From the UHGV virus genome UHGV-0132371: a stretch of 45,879 bases of DNA. One strand, written 5' to 3'. Every line of letters starts with the position of its first letter. The first letter of the stretch is position 1. Source of the DNA: a virus. The position numbers and the translations under genes are program-made. Below, piece after piece: positions 9,539-22,487 of the stretch. A model generated the notes under the pieces. It was not told the DNA's origin. It was given only the letters and a program-made list of their open reading frames with translations, and made no database searches.

Positions 9539-9620
9539 GCTTTATTCCAGGTATACACTGTCTCGGCAGCGGCAAAATCCGTTGCCGGGATTGGCGTCCT
9601 GGAATTGATTAAAGAGCACA

Positions 9621-9642
9621 ACCGCGCTCTGGCGGTTTTTTT
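9621..9642 (+). terminator. Possible weak intrinsic terminator (tR1-like)
   Basis: Short ACCGC...GCGGT stem followed by TTTTTTT. Confidence 0.3.
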
Positions 9643-9807
9643 GTGCGAAATGCATTGCTACACCCTGATTATGGTGGGGCGTGCAGGGGCATCGAAAGAT
9701 GCGCCGGCTTCTTTAGTCACCGGTTACGCCAACCCTGCACGTCTCACCACCAATGAGATTGGCGTCTCTTGTGGTGAGTTGTTAAAACTGACTAAAGAGG
9801 CAGCCAT

Positions 9808-16021: not shown

Positions 16022-17074
16022 ATGAAAAATACTGTAAATATAAACAGTGTTGAGTTAGTCAACGCTGATAGCCTGCAATACATCGCCACTCTCCCTGATA
16101 ACTCCATTGACCTGATAGTCACGGATCCGCCGTACTTCAAAGTGAAACCAAACGGCTGGGACAACCAATGGAAAGGGGATGATGATTATCTTCGATGGCT
16201 TGATATGTACCTCGCACAATTCTGGCGAGTGCTTAAACCTGCCGGCAGTCTTTATCTTTTCTCCGGTCACCGCCTGTCGGCAGACATTGAGATCATGATG
16301 CGTGAGCGGTTCAACGTCCTGAACCACATCATCTGGGCTAAACCGTCTGGCCGCTGGAATGGCTGTAATAAAGAGAGCCTTCGCTCTTACTTCCCTGCAA
16401 CAGAGCGCATCCTGTTCGCTGAGCATTACCAGGGGCCGTATAAACCAAAGAGCGACGGGTACGCTGAGAAGGGAAGCGAGCTGAAGCAGCATGTAATGAC
16501 TCCCCTAATTTCTTATTTCCGGGATGCACGTGAAGCGCTTGGCATATCCTCAAAACAAATAGCCGATGCGACTGGAAAGAAGAACATGGTGTCTCACTGG
16601 TTCAGCGGTAGCCAGTGGCAATTACCGAATGAATCCGACTACCGGAAACTTCAATCCCTTTTCACGCAGGTAGCCATCGAAAAGCACCAGAACGGCGAAC
16701 TGGCAACACCACACCACCAGCTGGTGGCCCTGTGGCATTCGTTAAATCGCAAGTATTCAGAGCTGCTCGAAGAGTACAAATCGCTTCGGCGGCATTTCTC
16801 TGTTTCCGTATCCGTTCCTTATACCGACGTCTGGACACATAAACCCGTTCAGTTTTACCCAGGTAAACACCCATGCGAAAAACCCGCTGACATGTTGCGG
16901 CAGATCATCAACGCCAGCAGTAAGCCTGGTGATGTGGTGGCTGATTTCTTTATGGGGTCCGGTTCGACCGTGAAAATCGCGCTGGAACTTGGCCGCCAGG
17001 CTATCGGCGTTGAACTCGAGGAAGACAGGTTTAGCCAGACGGTGGAGGAAATAAGGGCGTTAACAGGGGAGTAA
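16022..17074 (+). CDS. Orphan DNA methyltransferase (beta-class N6-adenine/N4-cytosine; DPPY before FxGxG)
   Basis: 350 aa with TDPPY near the N-terminus and DFFMGSGST near the C-terminus; no adjacent restriction endonuclease. Confidence 0.8.
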   Translation: MKNTVNINSVELVNADSLQYIATLPDNSIDLIVTDPPYFKVKPNGWDNQWKGDDDYLRWLDMYLAQFWRVLKPAGSLYLFSGHRLSADIEIMMRERFNVLNHIIWAKPSGRWNGCNKESLRSYFPATERILFAEHYQGPYKPKSDGYAEKGSELKQHVMTPLISYFRDAREALGISSKQIADATGKKNMVSHWFSGSQWQLPNESDYRKLQSLFTQVAIEKHQNGELATPHHQLVALWHSLNRKYSELLEEYKSLRRHFSVSVSVPYTDVWTHKPVQFYPGKHPCEKPADMLRQIINASSKPGDVVADFFMGSGSTVKIALELGRQAIGVELEEDRFSQTVEEIRALTGE

Positions 17075-17142
17075 ACGTGAGGTCGCTCAAGCGGCCTTTT
17101 TTATTACCTCAATAACACCCGCACACAGCGAGGTGAGAGACC

Positions 17143-17445
17143 ATGAAAATGAATGATTCAGGGAACATTTTCACGCAGTTCTTCGCGTGGGTAGCAGCTC
17201 TGGCGTCAGCCATTGGTTTTACCACTCAGGATATGGTGTTCATGTTCTTTGGCGCCGCTGGTCTGCTTATCTCGTTTGCCTCCTATGTCAATGGTCGCGT
17301 GGATGCCCACCGCAGGCGTAGAGAGGACGAAAAGCGAACAAAAATGGTTAATGACTACCTGAAAGGCGTTGGTGATAAACCCCTTCACGAACGTCCTGCG
17401 GCTGCAAGCGTGGTCGTTGAGGCATTACAAAAGGAAGGTGAGTGA
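17143..17445 (+). CDS. Holin (two-TMD, pinholin-like)
   Basis: 100 aa, two hydrophobic helices and a charged C-terminus; immediately upstream of a SAR endolysin; GAGGTGAGAG RBS. Confidence 0.6.
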   Translation: MKMNDSGNIFTQFFAWVAALASAIGFTTQDMVFMFFGAAGLLISFASYVNGRVDAHRRRREDEKRTKMVNDYLKGVGDKPLHERPAAASVVVEALQKEGE

Positions 17446-17981
17446 TGGGATCCAGAGCAAAATTAAGCGCTGCTGTTCTGGGGCTGGTACTTGCTGGTGC
17501 GCCAGCATCCGTCATTCTCGATCAGTTTCTGAATGAGAAAGAGGGAAACAGCCTTACAGCGTACAAAGATGGCAGCGGCATCTGGACGATTTGCCGGGGA
17601 GCTACCACGGTTGACGGCAAGCCTGTTAACCCAGGTATGAGGCTATCGCCAGAGAAATGTAATCAGGTGAACGCCAGCGAGCTGAACAAGGCGCTGGCTT
17701 GGGTCGACCGCAATATCCAGGTACCACTGACCGAACCTCAGAAAGCGGGGATTGCCTCATTCTGCCCGTACAACATTGGTCCTGGTAAATGCTTTCCTTC
17801 GACCTTTTATAAACGCATCAACGCCGGTGATCGTAAAGGGGCGTGTGAAGCAATCCGCTGGTGGATCAAAGATGGTGGCCGTGATTGTCGATTAACCAAA
17901 GGCCAGAAGAACGGCTGCTATGGTCAGGTCGAGCGACGGGACCAGGAAAGCGCGCTGGTGTGCTGGGGGATAGAACAGTGA
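17445..17981 (+). CDS. SAR endolysin (T4-lysozyme-like muramidase with N-terminal signal-anchor-release domain)
   Basis: N-terminal hydrophobic LSAAVLGLVLAGAPASVIL followed by the E-x8-D-x5-T catalytic triad. Confidence 0.8.
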   Translation: MGSRAKLSAAVLGLVLAGAPASVILDQFLNEKEGNSLTAYKDGSGIWTICRGATTVDGKPVNPGMRLSPEKCNQVNASELNKALAWVDRNIQVPLTEPQKAGIASFCPYNIGPGKCFPSTFYKRINAGDRKGACEAIRWWIKDGGRDCRLTKGQKNGCYGQVERRDQESALVCWGIEQ

Positions 17982-18493
17982 AATTTAATCTCTTCGCGGT
18001 CCTGGTTGTAGTCATTGCAGGTCTGTCAGTCGCCCTCGTCAAAAGTTGCTCAAACGCCAGTAGCCTACAGAGCGATAACGACGTTCTGCGAAGTGACAAC
18101 TCTATGCAGGGGCAGGTGATCGCCACCCAGGCATTCAACTTCAATCGATTCAATCAGGTTGCAGAACATGCCAACAGGCTTAACTCCCTGATCGACACCA
18201 GCACCGAAGAAACCGTAATCGAATACCGGGAGATTCTCCGCCGTGAAAAAACCTGTGATCTGCCTGTTCCTGCTGACATTGCTGGTGGGCTGCTCGAATA
18301 CGCGTACCGTTTACGTTCCAGCGCAATGCACGCCGATACCGACGGAATTAACGCAGCCGATGATAGTACCGCTGCCGCCGGCTCAATAACGTACTGCCAG
18401 GCTGTGCTCTGGATTAAGCCGCTGCTGGCCGTGATTGAAAAGGGCAATAACAATTTCGCTGGAATTCGTCAAATAGAGAGCGAGCGTCAATAG
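17978..18493 (+). CDS. Rz-like inner-membrane spanin
   Basis: GTG start overlapping the endolysin stop; N-terminal TMD then coiled coil; contains an embedded lipoprotein ORF. Confidence 0.6.
   Translation: MKFNLFAVLVVVIAGLSVALVKSCSNASSLQSDNDVLRSDNSMQGQVIATQAFNFNRFNQVAEHANRLNSLIDTSTEETVIEYREILRREKTCDLPVPADIAGGLLEYAYRLRSSAMHADTDGINAADDSTAAAGSITYCQAVLWIKPLLAVIEKGNNNFAGIRQIESERQ
18243..18389 (+). CDS. Rz1-like outer-membrane spanin lipoprotein, embedded in Rz in the +1 frame
   Basis: 48 aa with lipobox LLVGC and proline-rich C-terminus PLPPAQ; GTG start; not in the ORF track. Confidence 0.55.
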   Translation: MKKPVICLFLLTLLVGCSNTRTVYVPAQCTPIPTELTQPMIVPLPPAQ

Positions 18494-18494
18494 T

Positions 18495-18545
18495 CTTTAT
18501 CCCTAGCAAGGGATAAAGCAACCATTATCCCCGCTAAGGGATAGG
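18495..18545. repeat. Two tandem palindromes (TATCCC...GGGATA class)
   Basis: CTTTATCCCT-AGCA-AGGGATAAAG (perfect 10 bp arms) then TTATCCCCGCTAAGGGATA, right after the Rz stop. Confidence 0.5.
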
Positions 18546-18600
18546 CGTTACAGCAGACACTCACCTAATGCCTGTTGCCATTCAGCCAAGGAGCCAGCCT

Positions 18601-18846
18601 ATGAAAAAAGTTAAAGTTACAATTGCTCACCTTGAAGAGCACTACGAGGGTATTGTTCGAGCCGCAAACGTCACATTCCAGGTTATTCAGAATGAAAGTG
18701 TGATAGTGAAGGATTCTTTATCCGGTAAAGCTTCCCATCCCTTCACTAAAATTTACGCTGTCGATGTTGATGAATCAGCTGTACATGTGATGCATGATCG
18801 GCCTGATTTGAGCTGGTTAACAATTACAGCAGAGCTTGTTGAATAG
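18601..18846 (+). CDS. Hypothetical protein (81 aa)
   Basis: AAGGAG RBS before the ATG (track ORF starts at 18568). Confidence 0.45.
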   Translation: MKKVKVTIAHLEEHYEGIVRAANVTFQVIQNESVIVKDSLSGKASHPFTKIYAVDVDESAVHVMHDRPDLSWLTITAELVE

Positions 18847-18905
18847 TATTTATTTTGCAGCTTCAATTGCTTAGCATTATCTCCGGGTACCCAAAGGAGA
18901 TAAAT

Positions 18906-19127
18906 ATGTTTGTTGCAGAAGGCTTGAAGCCTGACCTTGATAATATAGGTTGGGTTATGGGGTGGGGGGTTGTAAGGAATGCCCCGTGGCATTTAGTCGG
19001 TGTTTACGCCACCAAAGATGTGGCCGAAACTAAGGCAGCCTCACTAGGTGAGGGCTATGAAGCCCATTATGGCTCACATCGGTTAGGCTCTGACGACTTC
19101 ATCCACCACAACTTCACGCGCAGTTAA
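18906..19127 (+). CDS. Hypothetical protein (73 aa)
   Basis: AAAGGAGA RBS before the ATG (track ORF starts at 18855). Confidence 0.45.
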   Translation: MFVAEGLKPDLDNIGWVMGWGVVRNAPWHLVGVYATKDVAETKAASLGEGYEAHYGSHRLGSDDFIHHNFTRS

Positions 19128-19150
19128 CAAAAGAAGTTGTTCGATATTTA

Positions 19151-19174
19151 GCCTCGCTTATGCGGGGCTTTTTT
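19151..19174 (+). terminator. Rho-independent terminator
   Basis: GCCTCGC-TTAT-GCGGGGC hairpin followed by TTTTTT. Confidence 0.5.
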
Positions 19175-19287
19175 ATGCGCATCGCACGCGCACACCGTAG
19201 AAAGTCTTTCAGTTGTGAGCCTGGGCAAACCGTTAACTTTCGGCGGCTTTGCCGTGCGACAGGCTCACGCCTAAAAGGAAATAAATC

Positions 19288-19755
19288 ATGGGTCATAAAA
19301 TTATCACGTTGTCCGGCGCGGCGACGGATGTTCTGTATGCGCTGTTTTTCCGTGGCGCGCTTCAGTCTGGTGATCTGCCAGCCAAATCTGGTGCTGCTGA
19401 GCTTCTAGAGCTGGGATTCGCTGAAACACGCCATACCGCGACGGAGTATCAAAAGGAAAATTATTACACCTTCCTGACCGCTGAAGGGCAGGAGTTCGCC
19501 ATTAAGCACCTGGTGAATACGCGCTTTGGTGTTCCTGCTGGTGGTTATATTGGTGGCTCTGTAAATATTCAGTTTGGCCGGATAGAGAACGACCCACGAA
19601 AAGGCTATGCCATCAATGTTGGCATCTGTCCCGAAATTAAGACCGGCGTGAAGCTATCCCCTGAAATGGTAAAAGCGATCTCAGATGTTGTGTCCGAGGA
19701 ACTGAAGAAGAGTCTTCGGCCAGGTGGCACGATATGGTCAGCGCTGTCGCGATGA
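19288..19755 (+). CDS. Hypothetical protein (155 aa) immediately upstream of cos
   Basis: AAAAGGAAAT RBS; function unknown. Confidence 0.5.
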   Translation: MGHKIITLSGAATDVLYALFFRGALQSGDLPAKSGAAELLELGFAETRHTATEYQKENYYTFLTAEGQEFAIKHLVNTRFGVPAGGYIGGSVNIQFGRIENDPRKGYAINVGICPEIKTGVKLSPEMVKAISDVVSEELKKSLRPGGTIWSALSR

Positions 19756-19839
19756 ATGGACGTTTAGACGTCCAAATGGGTGCGAATCAAGTCGCATTCC
19801 CGCAAATGATAATCATTATCATTTGCGGGTCCTTTCCGG

Positions 19840-20040
19840 CGATCCGCCTTGTTACGGGGCGGCGTCCGCGCAGATTCTCGCTATTTATGAAAATTTTCAG
19901 GCATTTGCCGTTTCCGTTCTTCTTCTCGCTAATTCATTGTTTTAACTGTAAACACCCCTGAAAAGAAAGGAAATGATAAGCCTTAAAAACGGCTAAATAG
20001 CCAGAGGGCGTTTCCTTTCTCTGTTTTTGTGTATGGAGTG
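19840..20040. other. cos region (cosQ-cosN-cosB) of a lambda-type packaging system
   Basis: TTACGGGGCGGCGTCCGCG...CTATTTATGAAAATTTTC closely parallels the lambda cos junction (lambda cosN is GGGCGGCGACCT) and lies just upstream of Nu1. Confidence 0.65.
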
Positions 20041-20044
20041 AGCT

Positions 20045-20590
20045 ATGGAGGTCAACAAAAAGCGTCTTTCTGAAATATTTGGGGTCAGCGTGCGAACCAT
20101 TCAGAACTGGCAGGATCAGGGAATGCCTGTAGCACGTGGCGGTGGAAAAGGTAATGAGGTCCTCTATGAATCTTCCGCGGCTATCGAATGGTATTCCGCA
20201 CGCGACGCGGCGATTGAGAATGAGAAATTACGGAAGGAGGTGGAAGACCTTCGTCTTGCATCGGAATCCGACCTTCAGCCTGGTACGATTGACTATGAGC
20301 GTCACCGCCTCACCCGAGCGCAGGCAGATGCCCAGGAACTAAAAAATGCAAAAGATTCCGCTGAGGTGGTGGAAACCGCATTCTGCACGTTCGTGCTGTC
20401 GCGGATGGCCGGAGAAGTAGCCAGCATTCTTGATGGAGTTCCTCTGTCGGTTCAGCGGCGCTTCCCGGAGCTGGAAAACCGACATATTGATTTCCTCAAG
20501 AAGGACATCATTAAAGCCATGAACAAAGCAGCTGCGCTGGATGAAATAATACCGGGGTTGCTGAGTGAATATATCGAACAGTCAGGTTAA
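20045..20590 (+). CDS. nu1: Terminase small subunit Nu1
   Basis: Near-identical to lambda Nu1 over its whole length (MEVNKK...IQNWQ.QGMPV.RGGGKGNEVLY...LSEYIEQSG). Confidence 0.9.
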   Translation: MEVNKKRLSEIFGVSVRTIQNWQDQGMPVARGGGKGNEVLYESSAAIEWYSARDAAIENEKLRKEVEDLRLASESDLQPGTIDYERHRLTRAQADAQELKNAKDSAEVVETAFCTFVLSRMAGEVASILDGVPLSVQRRFPELENRHIDFLKKDIIKAMNKAAALDEIIPGLLSEYIEQSG

Positions 20591-22487
20591 GGGGCTGCAG
20601 CACTCTGCGCGCGCGGGTCTACTTTCGCTGTACCGACCTGAGCCGCAAACGGCGGTTGAATGGGCAGACGATAATTACTATCTCCCCAAAGAGTCGGCCT
20701 ACCAGGAAGGGCGCTGGGAAACGTTGCCGTTTCAACGCGCGATCATGAATGCGATGGGTAACGATTACATACGTGAGGTCAACGTTGTTAAGTCTGCCCG
20801 TGTTGGCTATTCAAAAATGTTGCTGGGTGTTTATGCGTATTTTATTCAGCACAAGCAGCGAAATTCCCTTATCTGGCTGCCTACTGATGGTGACGCCGAA
20901 AACTTTATGAAGTCGCATGTTGAGCCGACGATTCGCGATATTCCGTCACTTCTGGCGCTGGCCCCCTGGTATGGAAAAAAGCACCGGGACAATACGCTCA
21001 GTATGAAACGCTTCTCCAACGGTCGCGGGTTCTGGTGTCTGGGTGGTAAAGCGGCGAAAAACTATCGTGAGAAATCGGTCGATGTCGCCGGTTACGATGA
21101 ACTGGCGGCATTCGATGAAGATATTGAGAAAGAGGGATCCCCGACGTTCCTGGGTGATAAACGTATTGAGGGGTCTGTCTGGCCCAAATCTATTCGCGGC
21201 TCAACGCCAAAAACAAAGGGGACCTGCCAGATTGAGCGTGCTGCCAGCGAGTCCGGGCATTTCATGCGTTTTCATGTTGCCTGTCCGCACTGTGGTGAAG
21301 AGCAGTACCTTAAATTCGGCGACAAAGAGACCCCGTTCGGGCTGAAATGGACACCGGGCGAACCCTCCAGCGTCTTTTACCTGTGTGAACATAATGCCTG
21401 CGTCATTAAGCAGCAGGAGCTGGATTTCACTGAAGCTCGTTACATCTGCGACACCACCGGGATCTGGACACGCGACGGTTTATCCTGGTTTTCATCAACA
21501 GGCACCGAAATCGACCCGCCAGACAGCGTGACGTTTCACATCTGGACGGCATACAGCCCGTTTACCACCTGGGTTCAGATCGTTAAAGACTGGCTAAAAA
21601 CGAAAGGGGATACAGGAAAGCGTAAAACCTTCGTGAACACCACTCTGGGCGAAACATGGGAGCCTAAAATTGGTGAACGGCCTGACGCGGAGCTCATGGC
21701 CGAACGCAAAGAGTTCTTCGGGGCATCCGTACCGGAGCGTGTTGCTTATCTGACAGCCGGGATCGACTCCCAACTGGATCGATATGAAATGCGCGTCTGG
21801 GGATGGGGGCCCGGTGAGGAAAGCTGGCTGATTGACCGGCAGATCATTATGGGCCGTCATGATGATGAAGCGACCCTCGTCAGGGTGGACGAGGCGATTA
21901 ACAAAACCTATCTCCGAAAGAATGGCGTGGAAATGTCGGTATCCCGTATCTGCTGGGATATCGGCGGTATTGACCCCACCATTGTCTACAATCGCTCAAA
22001 AAAGCATGGTTTGTTTCGCGTGATCCCGATTAAAGGGGCTTCCGTTTACGGTAAGCCTGTCGCGAATATGCCGCGTAAACGCAACAAGAACGGCGTTTAT
22101 CTGACGGAAGTGGGGACTGATACCGCAAAGGAGCAGATTTATAACCGCTTCACACTTCAGCCGGAAGGGAGTGAACCTCTTGCCGGTGCCGTGCATTTTC
22201 CCAATAACCCCGAAATTTATGATCTGGCTGAGGCGCAGCAGCTTACTGCTGAGGAGCAGGTTGAAAAATGGGTGGACGGGCGTAAGAAAATCGTCTGGGA
22301 CAGCAAAAAGCGACGAAATGAGGCGCTGGACTGCTTCGTGTACGCGCTGGCTGCCCTGCGGATCAGTATTTCGCGATGGCAACTGAATCTTGATTCACTG
22401 CTCGCGAGCCTACTGGAGGAAGAGGGGAACCGGACCAATAACAAAACCCTGGCTGATTATGCCAGGGCATTATCTGGAGATGAATAA
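20565..22487 (+). CDS. A: Terminase large subunit gpA
   Basis: 640 aa, high similarity to lambda A throughout. Confidence 0.9.

Follow-up and report, generated by a model that had tools for sequence, protein, structure and literature searches.

What are two adjacent palindromes and a long hairpin doing between the lysis genes and the cos site of a lambda-like phage? The question is raised by the virus genome UHGV-0132371 (45,879 nucleotides, nt, one strand, 5' to 3'; this whole stretch is called the window here), which from 18300 to 19900 shares 99.6% identity with a temperate coliphage of the lambda-like kind, Enterobacteria phage mEp237. The order is DNA methylase, holin, lysozyme, Rz, palindromes, gp60, gp61, terminator, long hairpin, gp62, lambda-type cos and Nu1 (20045). 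A first-pass annotation had recorded two adjacent palindromes after Rz, one with perfect 10-nt arms, two small open reading frames (ORFs) with strong ribosome-binding sites, a terminator, an ORF of 155 amino acids (aa), and a long hairpin at 19215-19268 with an inner GGCAAA/TTTGCC pair, all of which are present as described; it had also taken palindromes and hairpin to frame the two small genes as a regulated cargo unit with its own operators. The framing is misleading. On balance, the stretch from Rz to cos is probably a row of independent mosaic modules, among them an orphan operator pair of the HipB type and a portable leader RNA that would damp the translation of the gene behind it.

Both palindromes contain TTATCCC..GGGATA and start 28 nt apart. 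The first has perfect 10-nt arms (CTTTATCCCT/AGGGATAAAG, 18495-18504 and 18509-18518), giving an extended perfect palindrome at 18495-18518; the second (TATCCC-CGCTAA-GGGATA, 18526-18543) has arms of only 6 nt. The pattern TATCCC-N6-GGGATA, with at most one mismatch, occurs in the 45.9-kb window at these two sites only, against 0.06 expected (two hits in none of 100 shuffles), and the looser TATCC-N8-GGATA likewise finds these two sites alone, both with 0 mismatches. There are thus no further copies in the window; in relatives the palindromes are present, in patchy fashion. Origin iterons of the lambda O type, which follow the pattern ATCCC-N9-GGGAT, were rejected as an identification because the spacing differs and the window holds no other copies, and the partition and telomere sites of N15 because both the palindromes and the leader described below are missing from N15; the region upstream of N15 gp59 holds a different palindrome, GCGACCACGGTCGC.

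The operator consensus of HipB is TATCC-N8-GGATA, the crystallized HipB operator is ACTATCCCCTTAAGGGGATAG, and an O1O2 oligonucleotide (TTATCCGCTTAAGGGGATA-TTATAAGTTT-TATCCTTTAGTGAGGATAA, in an 18+10+18 layout) is bound by HipB with a Kd of 0.6 nM (PMC3376134). Site 1 of the window (TATCCCTAGCAAGGGATA, 18498..18515) matches this consensus and is followed, after the 10-nt spacer AAGCAACCAT (18516..18525), by site 2 (TATCCCCGCTAAGGGATA, 18526..18543); the spacer has the length of those between O4 and O3 and between O2 and O1 in Escherichia coli K-12, where the hipBA promoter reads O4-10nt-O3 ... TTGACT-O2-10nt-O1. The window pair thus has the 18+10+18 layout, the half-sites, the unconstrained 8-nt center and the 10-nt spacer of hipBA O1-O2. 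When one genome per bacterial species is searched with the strict pattern, 58 loci are found, and in at least 25 of them a hipB-hipA operon starts directly beside the palindromes (tblastn). The arrays next to hipB-hipA comprise two to five sites, and their spacers measure 10 nt 45 times and 9 nt 11 times; several enterobacterial loci have one site placed between TTGAC(A/T) and TATAAA.

The likeness to the hipBA operators O1-O4 extends to the half-sites (TATCC...GGATA, usually TATCCC...GGGATA), the variable 8-nt center and the tandem spacer of 10, sometimes 9, nt. It ends at the surroundings: the phage pair consists of two sites only, against three to five in hipBA promoters, stands after the lysis cassette, has no neighboring hipB or hipA, and is not overlapped by a -35 or -10 element. 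Neither a HipB homologue (tblastn, E <= 1e-3) nor a HipA homologue is encoded in the window, and neither hipB nor hipA is found in the 94 viral loci of the strict pattern. On their sequence and spacing the palindromes match the HipB operator, yet they do not lie in a hipBA promoter, and they are hence best filed as an orphan variant of it.

Orphan pairs of the HipB type are seen in bacterial chromosomes too, with no hipA in the 8-kb locus, for example in Lelliottia, in Vibrio and in five further loci; one stands beside a large ORF that resembles, by eye, a BLUF-EAL protein, and another beside an ORF like a class A beta-lactamase. Control of other genes by HipB-type regulators may be common. 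Hits of the scan in sphingomonads and other distant taxa, which have C/G-rich centers, spacers of 5-6 or 24 nt and no hipA match in the locus, were left unused as possibly unrelated. Eight of the sphingomonad loci carry paired TATCCCCCC(N)GGGGGGATA palindromes with 5-6-nt spacers, shortly upstream of conserved ORF-like sequence, and these are probably the operator of a different regulator.

How widely the pair occurs depends on whether the copy or the pattern is searched. By BLAST, near-identical versions of the window copy turn up in mEp237, in phage Phi06_2987 and in 7 of 5426 complete E. coli genomes, and nowhere else. A strict pattern scan that fixed the arms alone and permitted 4-24 nt between the sites returns 94 viral contigs with 65 different sequences; the spacer is 9 or 10 nt in every one, and centers, spacers and flanks vary freely in sequence. 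Together with a loose scan (arms TATCC/GGATA, spacers of 8-12 nt permitted) there are at least 171 viral loci and at least 123 distinct pairs, and the spacers of 123 distinct viral pairs measure 10 nt in 96, 9 nt in 26 and 12 nt in one. We calculate that chance alone would yield fewer than one match to a pattern of 20-24 fixed bases in sequence collections as large as these. Representative variants have matches in temperate Klebsiella phages, in intergenic DNA without annotation, and the contigs that bear the pair resemble named phages of E. coli and Klebsiella, some matching prophage regions of Enterobacter, Klebsiella and Halomonas.

The position of the pair is fixed too. The neighboring ORFs of the 94 strict loci were clustered, and the clusters named by PHROGs (Rz-like spanin, HNH endonuclease, terminase small subunit); 73 loci have a recognizable lysis gene, cargo or packaging gene, or both, within 1.5 kb, and in 71 of these the lysis cassette, the pair and the cargo or packaging genes follow one another in one direction of transcription. 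The genes themselves change: upstream there are at least two unrelated Rz families, and downstream a gp60-like gene, an N15-gp59-like gene, a gene for a 102-aa protein, an HNH endonuclease or the terminase small subunit. A gp60-like gene lies directly 3' of the pair in 12 of the 94 loci, the gp62-like N-terminal domain adjoins it in 17, and the hairpin leader in 15; a link of the pair to the gp59-like gene or to the leader was rejected on the last two counts, and a link to gp60 because only near-identical copies keep both, gp60 homologues at 60-67% identity being found without the pair. In two viral contigs a lambda-like cosQ/cosN that has a GATAATCATTAT motif of its own follows some 10 nt after the pair, and in others HipB-type pairs are flanked by units of the form 'GCCATTACA-hairpin-TGATAATGG', similar to the hairpin leader of gp60 described below.

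Two samples drawn by homology of the Rz protein, and thus blind to the palindromes, show how the pair is kept and lost. Among the 80 closest relatives of the window Rz, 10 carry the pair and one a single site; the others carry different inserts. In a second Rz family the pair is recognizable in 28 of 56 loci, with single or degenerate sites in others, and here Rz terminates at the TAA within the GGGATAA of site 1. Over the 21 distinct pairs of this second sample, the positional entropy is 0.11 bit in the arms, 0.74 in the centers, 1.31 in the spacers and 0.97 in the flanks, a contrast that the filter used (at most four arm mismatches) biases somewhat, though far less than the difference observed. 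Decayed copies exist, with single sites, one or two arm mismatches, or a half-site junction ('tctttatccctgcttatagg'). By these comparisons the pair is an accessory element, often lost, whose arms and spacing are held while it is present. The conservation of the arms across many phages, with drifting centers and spacers, makes the palindromes look like protein operators.

Some relatives show further features. Five of them have the first 12 nt after Rz in common with the window (TCTTTATCCCTG, left arm of site 1 included) and no more, their sequences diverging from there; others found through Rz have only one palindrome, its two arms altered symmetrically to TATTCC-CGCTAA-GGAATA. Both groups look like recombination junctions or sites of altered specificity. 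In one group of contigs (L578-L592 and relatives) site 1 encodes the last six codons of Rz and its stop (...TCT ATC CCC AGT AAG GGA TAA), and homologues without the pair have different ends.

The same record of loss bears on whether the pair is functional at all. It might be a neutral relic, a fragment of a hipBA promoter brought in by illegitimate recombination or left by a lost phage hipBA moron and spread by mosaic exchange. The patchy occurrence among close relatives and the decayed copies fit such an origin, as does one viral contig that has four sites beside a hipA-like match, and the position after Rz is known as a dumping ground for mosaic inserts. Against this, at least 123 distinct pairs with diverged centers, spacers and flanks, intact arms and exact 9/10-nt spacing are hard to obtain without selection, the phage copies keep two sites and never the promoter-proximal -35/-10 context, and the contig just mentioned is the only one with a hipA-like match among the at least 171 viral loci listed. 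Neutrality is thus improbable to our mind.

The palindromes could also act as RNA, forming two small hairpins that serve as a stability or processing element in the late transcript or at the 3' end of the lysis mRNA, with the likeness to HipB sites being coincidental. The region and the lysis genes are transcribed together, the 126-nt stretch folds better than shuffles (z = -2.7), and many phage copies have an intrinsic terminator no more than about 10 nt behind them; the two inverted hairpins have the look of repetitive extragenic palindromes (REP) or bacterial interspersed mosaic elements (BIME), and the change to TATTCC..GGAATA in one relative preserves the palindrome. A structural hairpin should, however, tolerate compensatory changes in its arms, and the arms are nearly fixed where loops and spacers drift. 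Arm sequence, 8-nt center and 9/10-nt spacer all coincide with those of the operator arrays next to hipB-hipA, and the predicted minimum-free-energy structure pairs site 1 with site 2 instead of forming two hairpins, at an ensemble frequency below 1%. The pair has no T-run (its palindromes are followed by AAGCAA and GGCGTT) and is hence no terminator, nor is it reported by the terminator scan. Against Rfam 15 the gathering threshold is reached in the window by C4 and isrK alone, both of them elsewhere, and the best score in 18400-20100 is 19 bits, below every threshold. We give this explanation little credence. The comparison with REP and BIME holds for short intergenic palindromes that are paired, often inverted, and placed just after a stop codon and near terminators; it fails in the sequence, which is unrelated, in the copy number, which is one or two per genome and not hundreds, and in the fixed spacing, which is that of a known operator array.

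As protein operators, the sites could belong to the phage itself, as targets of an Xre/Cro-type protein with HipB-like specificity that controls the cargo genes or acts as a roadblock. Lambdoid phages encode several helix-turn-helix (HTH) proteins; a weak, generic Xre/HipB-like HTH match (35% identity over 59 aa) lies a few kb off in eight viral loci, and in 12 of the 94 strict loci the next gene after the pair is gp60-like. Against this, the window has no HipB homologue at the threshold given, the neighbors and the lysis and packaging modules differ between loci so that no common phage gene accompanies the pair within the flanks examined, gp60 homologues occur without it, and the gp60 model is all-beta; gp60, gp61 and gp62 have no hit to an HTH family, and no promoter was found. 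A phage-encoded regulator is very unlikely on this evidence. A consensus scan for sigma-70-like promoters alone finds 0 in 17000-20600, against 3.6 expected in shuffles; a promoter within or beside the pair was sought by scan and by eye and rejected, and the TTGACT-operator-TATAAA layout of hipBA promoters is absent from the phage copies. With no detectable promoter and the hipBA -35/-10 context missing, classical repression of the cargo genes is unsupported. What stands of the regulated cargo unit is thus the operator-like arms and spacing and a cargo zone between lysis genes and cos; the sites are of the HipB type, no promoter accompanies them, and they are not tied to gp60 and gp61.

The reading that remains preferred for the pair is that it is a copy of the O1-O2 or O3-O4 unit of the host hipBA promoter, minus the hipBA genes and any detectable promoter, and that in E. 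coli host HipB dimers, probably as HipA-HipB complexes, would occupy the phage site. The phage DNA could then act as a sink or scaffold for HipB and HipA, although this part is speculative. O1-O2-like pairs on replicating phage genomes would capture HipA-HipB complexes, the captured HipB would be degraded more slowly by Lon, and the HipA kinase would be held inactive when host gene expression falters, so that a translation arrest driven by HipA could not abort the infection. Schumacher and colleagues are said to have found in 2015 that adjacent operators promote HipA-HipA contacts that block the active sites and keep the kinase inactive. In vitro, operator DNA slows the degradation of HipB by Lon, and HipA does so separately (PMC3376134). 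Alternatively, the sites might let the phage sense the level of HipB, or its loss. That operator DNA from a toxin-antitoxin (TA) module of the host serves temperate enterobacterial phages as a decoy or scaffold, whether as counter-defense by a DNA site or as a sensor of HipB loss, is a tentative proposal that we think unlikely as it stands; of the mechanisms, sequestration is favored, and its functional step is a conjecture of similarly low probability.

Several observations weigh against a functional HipB site. No evidence was found in the literature for restriction of phages by K-12 hipBA, and the abortive infection that Gerdes and colleagues suggested as a possible role concerns some newly described families of HipA-homologous kinases (HipF/HipG, HipL/HipI) and not K-12 hipBA (PMC8262856). 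No promoter overlaps the pair, as one does O1/O2, and the binding of HipB to the phage site is itself a prediction. The pair is dispensable, as the two Rz samples and the decayed and half copies show, and the 7 of 5426 E. coli genomes are few for the window copy. Part of the conservation could come from coding, as site 1 overlaps the last Rz codons in one family, and the chromosomal orphan pairs beside unrelated genes mean that such pairs are not confined to phages.

The long hairpin is a different matter. It is unique in the window (GTGAGCCTG...CAGGCTCAC, 19215-19268) and folds at -42.8 kcal/mol (z = -3.15), a value reached by 0 of 200 shuffles. The sequence around it, 19172-19287, is 92-98% identical in otherwise dissimilar phages (HK639, mEp390, phi80, SaltyDalty, Aeromonas AsXd-1 and Salmonella FSL SP-016), lying in HK639 between the major tail gene and a moron, and 69-79% identical in phages of Klebsiella, Enterobacter and 'Elizabethkingia'. 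The conservation begins just behind a terminator T-run and reaches to the Shine-Dalgarno sequence (SD), after which the downstream ORFs diverge. Among the loci fetched there are at least 284 such sites with at least 84 core variants, most of them from two pattern scans of viral contigs.

In the window this conserved structured 5' leader of gp62 occupies 19176..19287 on the plus strand. Its helix 1 pairs 19176-19180 with 19188-19192; an anti-SD UCUUU at 19205-19209 pairs with the SD AAAGG at 19274-19278; the outer stem pairs GTGAGCCTG with CAGGCTCAC (19215-19223/19260-19268); and the inner stem joins 19224-19232 to 19244-19253. RNAalifold predicts four such helices from 40 diverse copies (a 5' GCGC/GCGC hairpin, the basal UCUUU/AAAGG-of-SD helix, GAGCCUG/CAGGCUC and the inner stem), with 97.7% of the cells paired over the 40 sequences and at most 58% in slid controls. 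The inner stem covaries: its pair 79/118 appears as GC (13), CG (12), UG (6), AU (3) and UA (3), and its pair 77/120 as GC (28), AU (8) and GU (4). Cells with double changes number 41, against 12 +/- 3 in shuffles, of which 0 of 500 reach 41, and in helix 4 double changes occur in four of the seven pairs. The anti-SD/SD helix is 95.5% paired, and the distance from the stem to the start codon is 17-21 nt, with constant orientation. These are the properties of a structured cis-regulatory 5' leader, with compensatory changes and a fixed position and orientation before a start codon. As far as comparative sequence analysis can tell, the hairpin is a common, undescribed cis-regulatory leader RNA of about 110 nt; no Rfam family matches it.

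A DNA-level element would account for the 54-nt hairpin differently, as the target of a dimeric protein on the GTGAGCCTG and CAGGCTCAC arms, or as a cruciform. The 9-nt arms are indeed perfectly complementary in copies of the window type, and they lie in a regulatory-looking intergenic gap. The arms, however, stand anywhere from 36 to about 50 nt apart in different variants, and what lies between them stays paired through compensatory changes; together, the variable distance and the covariation of the inner stem point to a folded single strand, most simply RNA, and not to a second operator in duplex DNA. Orientation and distance to the start codon are constant, the invariance of the arms is imposed by the search patterns, and in the CobraSix type a T of the 5' arm is replaced by C without compensation. 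We regard an element at the DNA level as highly improbable, and the hairpin belongs to the 5' leader of the 155-aa gene, not to gp60 and gp61. A role of the leader as a promoter or sigma-54 site was also rejected, with no match by eye or scan.

As an RNA, the leader comes just after a terminator in the late transcript, and its conserved CUUUC would pair with the SD of the next gene at the base of the hairpin. This pairing would partly occlude ribosome binding and so damp or gate the translation of the following cargo gene; candidates for what opens it are cleavage by RNase III, a factor, or nothing. In the partition function, the SD is unpaired with a probability of 0.32 at 37 C, and of 0.58 when CUUUC is changed to CAAAC in silico; between 20 C and 42 C, the thermodynamic model raises it only from 0.27 to 0.34. 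The small temperature dependence makes constitutive damping, or translation gated by a factor or an RNase, preferable to a thermometer. Some points limit the case for such damping: the occlusion is predicted to be only partial and barely dependent on temperature, the outer stem (helix 3) and CTTTCAG were fixed by the search patterns, which makes their invariance uninformative, and the anti-SD helix is nearly invariant and is thus backed by conservation with hardly any covariation.

Leaders that occlude the SD are known from the fourU and ROSE RNA thermometers and from lambda cIII. The gp62 leader resembles them in that its U-rich CUUUC pairs with the SD AAAGG at the base of a hairpin directly before the start codon. 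It differs from fourU, ROSE and cIII in having a long, GC-rich upper hairpin and in being a portable cassette without an Rfam match, and from thermometers in the small predicted opening of the SD. Its portability is seen in the at least 15 unrelated protein clusters encoded after it, of which the Rha-like (114) and the gp59-like (109) are the largest, followed by glycosyltransferases (16) and then by HNH, small and membrane proteins. A CobraSix-type leader, with 78 nt from CTTTCAG to CAGGCTCAC, is identical in at least 85 contigs, a degree of conservation that is uncommonly high in intergenic DNA, and in most cases a Rha-like gene comes next.

Pair and leader are unrelated modules. In seven viral loci the HipB-type pair stands 70-74 nt upstream of the leader with the terminator alone between them, and otherwise the two occur independently; in the window, a gp60-gp61 block of about 600 nt separates them, which is consistent with insertion of this block between two pre-existing modules.

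The genes around these elements, all on the plus strand, are mostly those of mEp237. The last gene of the lysis cassette, at 17978..18493, encodes an Rz-like i-spanin (PHROG 214 'Rz-like spanin', E = 2e-57; gp59 of mEp237), in which the ORF list has an embedded Rz1-like lipoprotein ORF (18243-18389). The 81-aa and 73-aa ORFs are gp60 and gp61 of mEp237. The leader of gp60 itself (18544..18585, with a hairpin 18551-18559/18569-18577) is a degenerate copy of GGCATTACAGCAGGCATTCACTGAGTGCCTGTGATAATG, a hairpin leader that the gp60 homologues found at 60-67% identity in a protein search retain, in place of the HipB-type pair; in the form GGCATTACAGCAGGCATTCACTGAGTGCCTG(T/C)GATAATG it accompanies gp60 homologues in further contigs. 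The gene for gp60, a small all-beta protein, follows at 18601..18846, with AAGGAG 7 nt 5' of its ATG, and that for gp61, with AAAGGAG, at 18906..19127. Between them, at 18877..18903, a short hairpin of 8 bp (TTATCTCC/GGAGATAA) includes the gp61 SD in its 3' arm, a second structure in the region that could occlude an SD. The intrinsic terminator found by the terminator scan lies at 19150..19176, with the stem AGCCTCGC/GCGGGGCT (19150-19169) and then TTTTTT, and the gene for the 155-aa gp62 at 19288..19755.

None of gp60, gp61 and gp62 matches Pfam, NCBIfam or PADLOC; a sequence search of the PDB gives nothing significant for the small proteins, and gp61 has no fold match. What these proteins do has no bearing on what the non-coding elements are. 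The N-terminal 80 or so residues of gp62 are shared with proteins of the type of N15 gp59 and phi80 ORF x171.28 (PHROGs 16910, 17079 and 4365). The model of gp60 is a small beta-sandwich whose closest matches in structure come from tail tip proteins, namely domains of lambda J and of the T1 tail fiber, and some relatives of gp62 are annotated as tail tip fiber proteins; on these models and names, tail tip or receptor-binding modules may be the origin of the cargo after the lysis genes, or its partners. Classical morons have their own promoter upstream and a terminator downstream, and lambdoid examples are bor and lom in lambda. The cargo genes resemble morons as accessory genes between conserved modules, here lysis genes and cos, that vary among close relatives; they differ in that no promoter is detected upstream (0 promoter-like sites in the range scanned) and that the terminator precedes the gp62 leader.

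Two features of the window lie outside this stretch. In the cosQ region, at 19799-19829, a 31-nt near-perfect palindrome (CCCGCAAATGATAATCATTATCATTTGCGGG) matches the Fur box GATAATGATAATCATTATC at 17 of 19 positions, with 0 matches in 100 shuffles, and probably explains the name 'Fur-regulated protein' given to neighboring ORFs in phi80 and in RefSeq prophages. At 9566-9754, the Hfq-binding RNA isrK (74.6 bits) lies beside a C4 antisense RNA (81.2 bits), as in antirepressor modules of the P1/P7 and Gifsy types.

Among known phage strategies, the closest to the proposed role of the pair are those directed at TA modules. Pseudo-ToxI RNA and Dmd of T4 are counter-measures that replace the antitoxin. 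Orphan DarG-like antitoxins of phages are given as a TA counter-measure in another study (PMC11825919). Like these antitoxin mimics, the palindrome pair would be an orphan piece of a host TA module; unlike them, it would replace no antitoxin as RNA or protein and would consist of borrowed operator DNA, through which HipB-HipA would be sequestered. The searchable literature, outside which many subscription papers lie, yielded no account of phage-borne HipB sites or of the leader sequence; a prior mention is possible.

For the phages, the leader RNA fronts varied accessory genes, such as those of Rha-like regulators, N15 gp59-like proteins and glycosyltransferases; a low translation of cargo within a highly expressed late transcript could be its effect, and it provides a sequence tag by which cargo genes can be located. 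For their hosts, the significance lies in hipBA, the founding persistence module, the biological role of which in the chromosome is debated. Exact copies of its operator pair that have no genes with them and that recur at a set position in over 170 viral contigs are a direct, testable hint of an interaction between hipBA and temperate phages. If HipB does not bind them, they would be a conserved but ordinary element of intergenic punctuation. If it does, hipBA would gain a phage-related context, the repertoire of anti-TA measures may extend to cis-acting DNA, and the 46-bp pair would be a simple tool for the titration of HipB.

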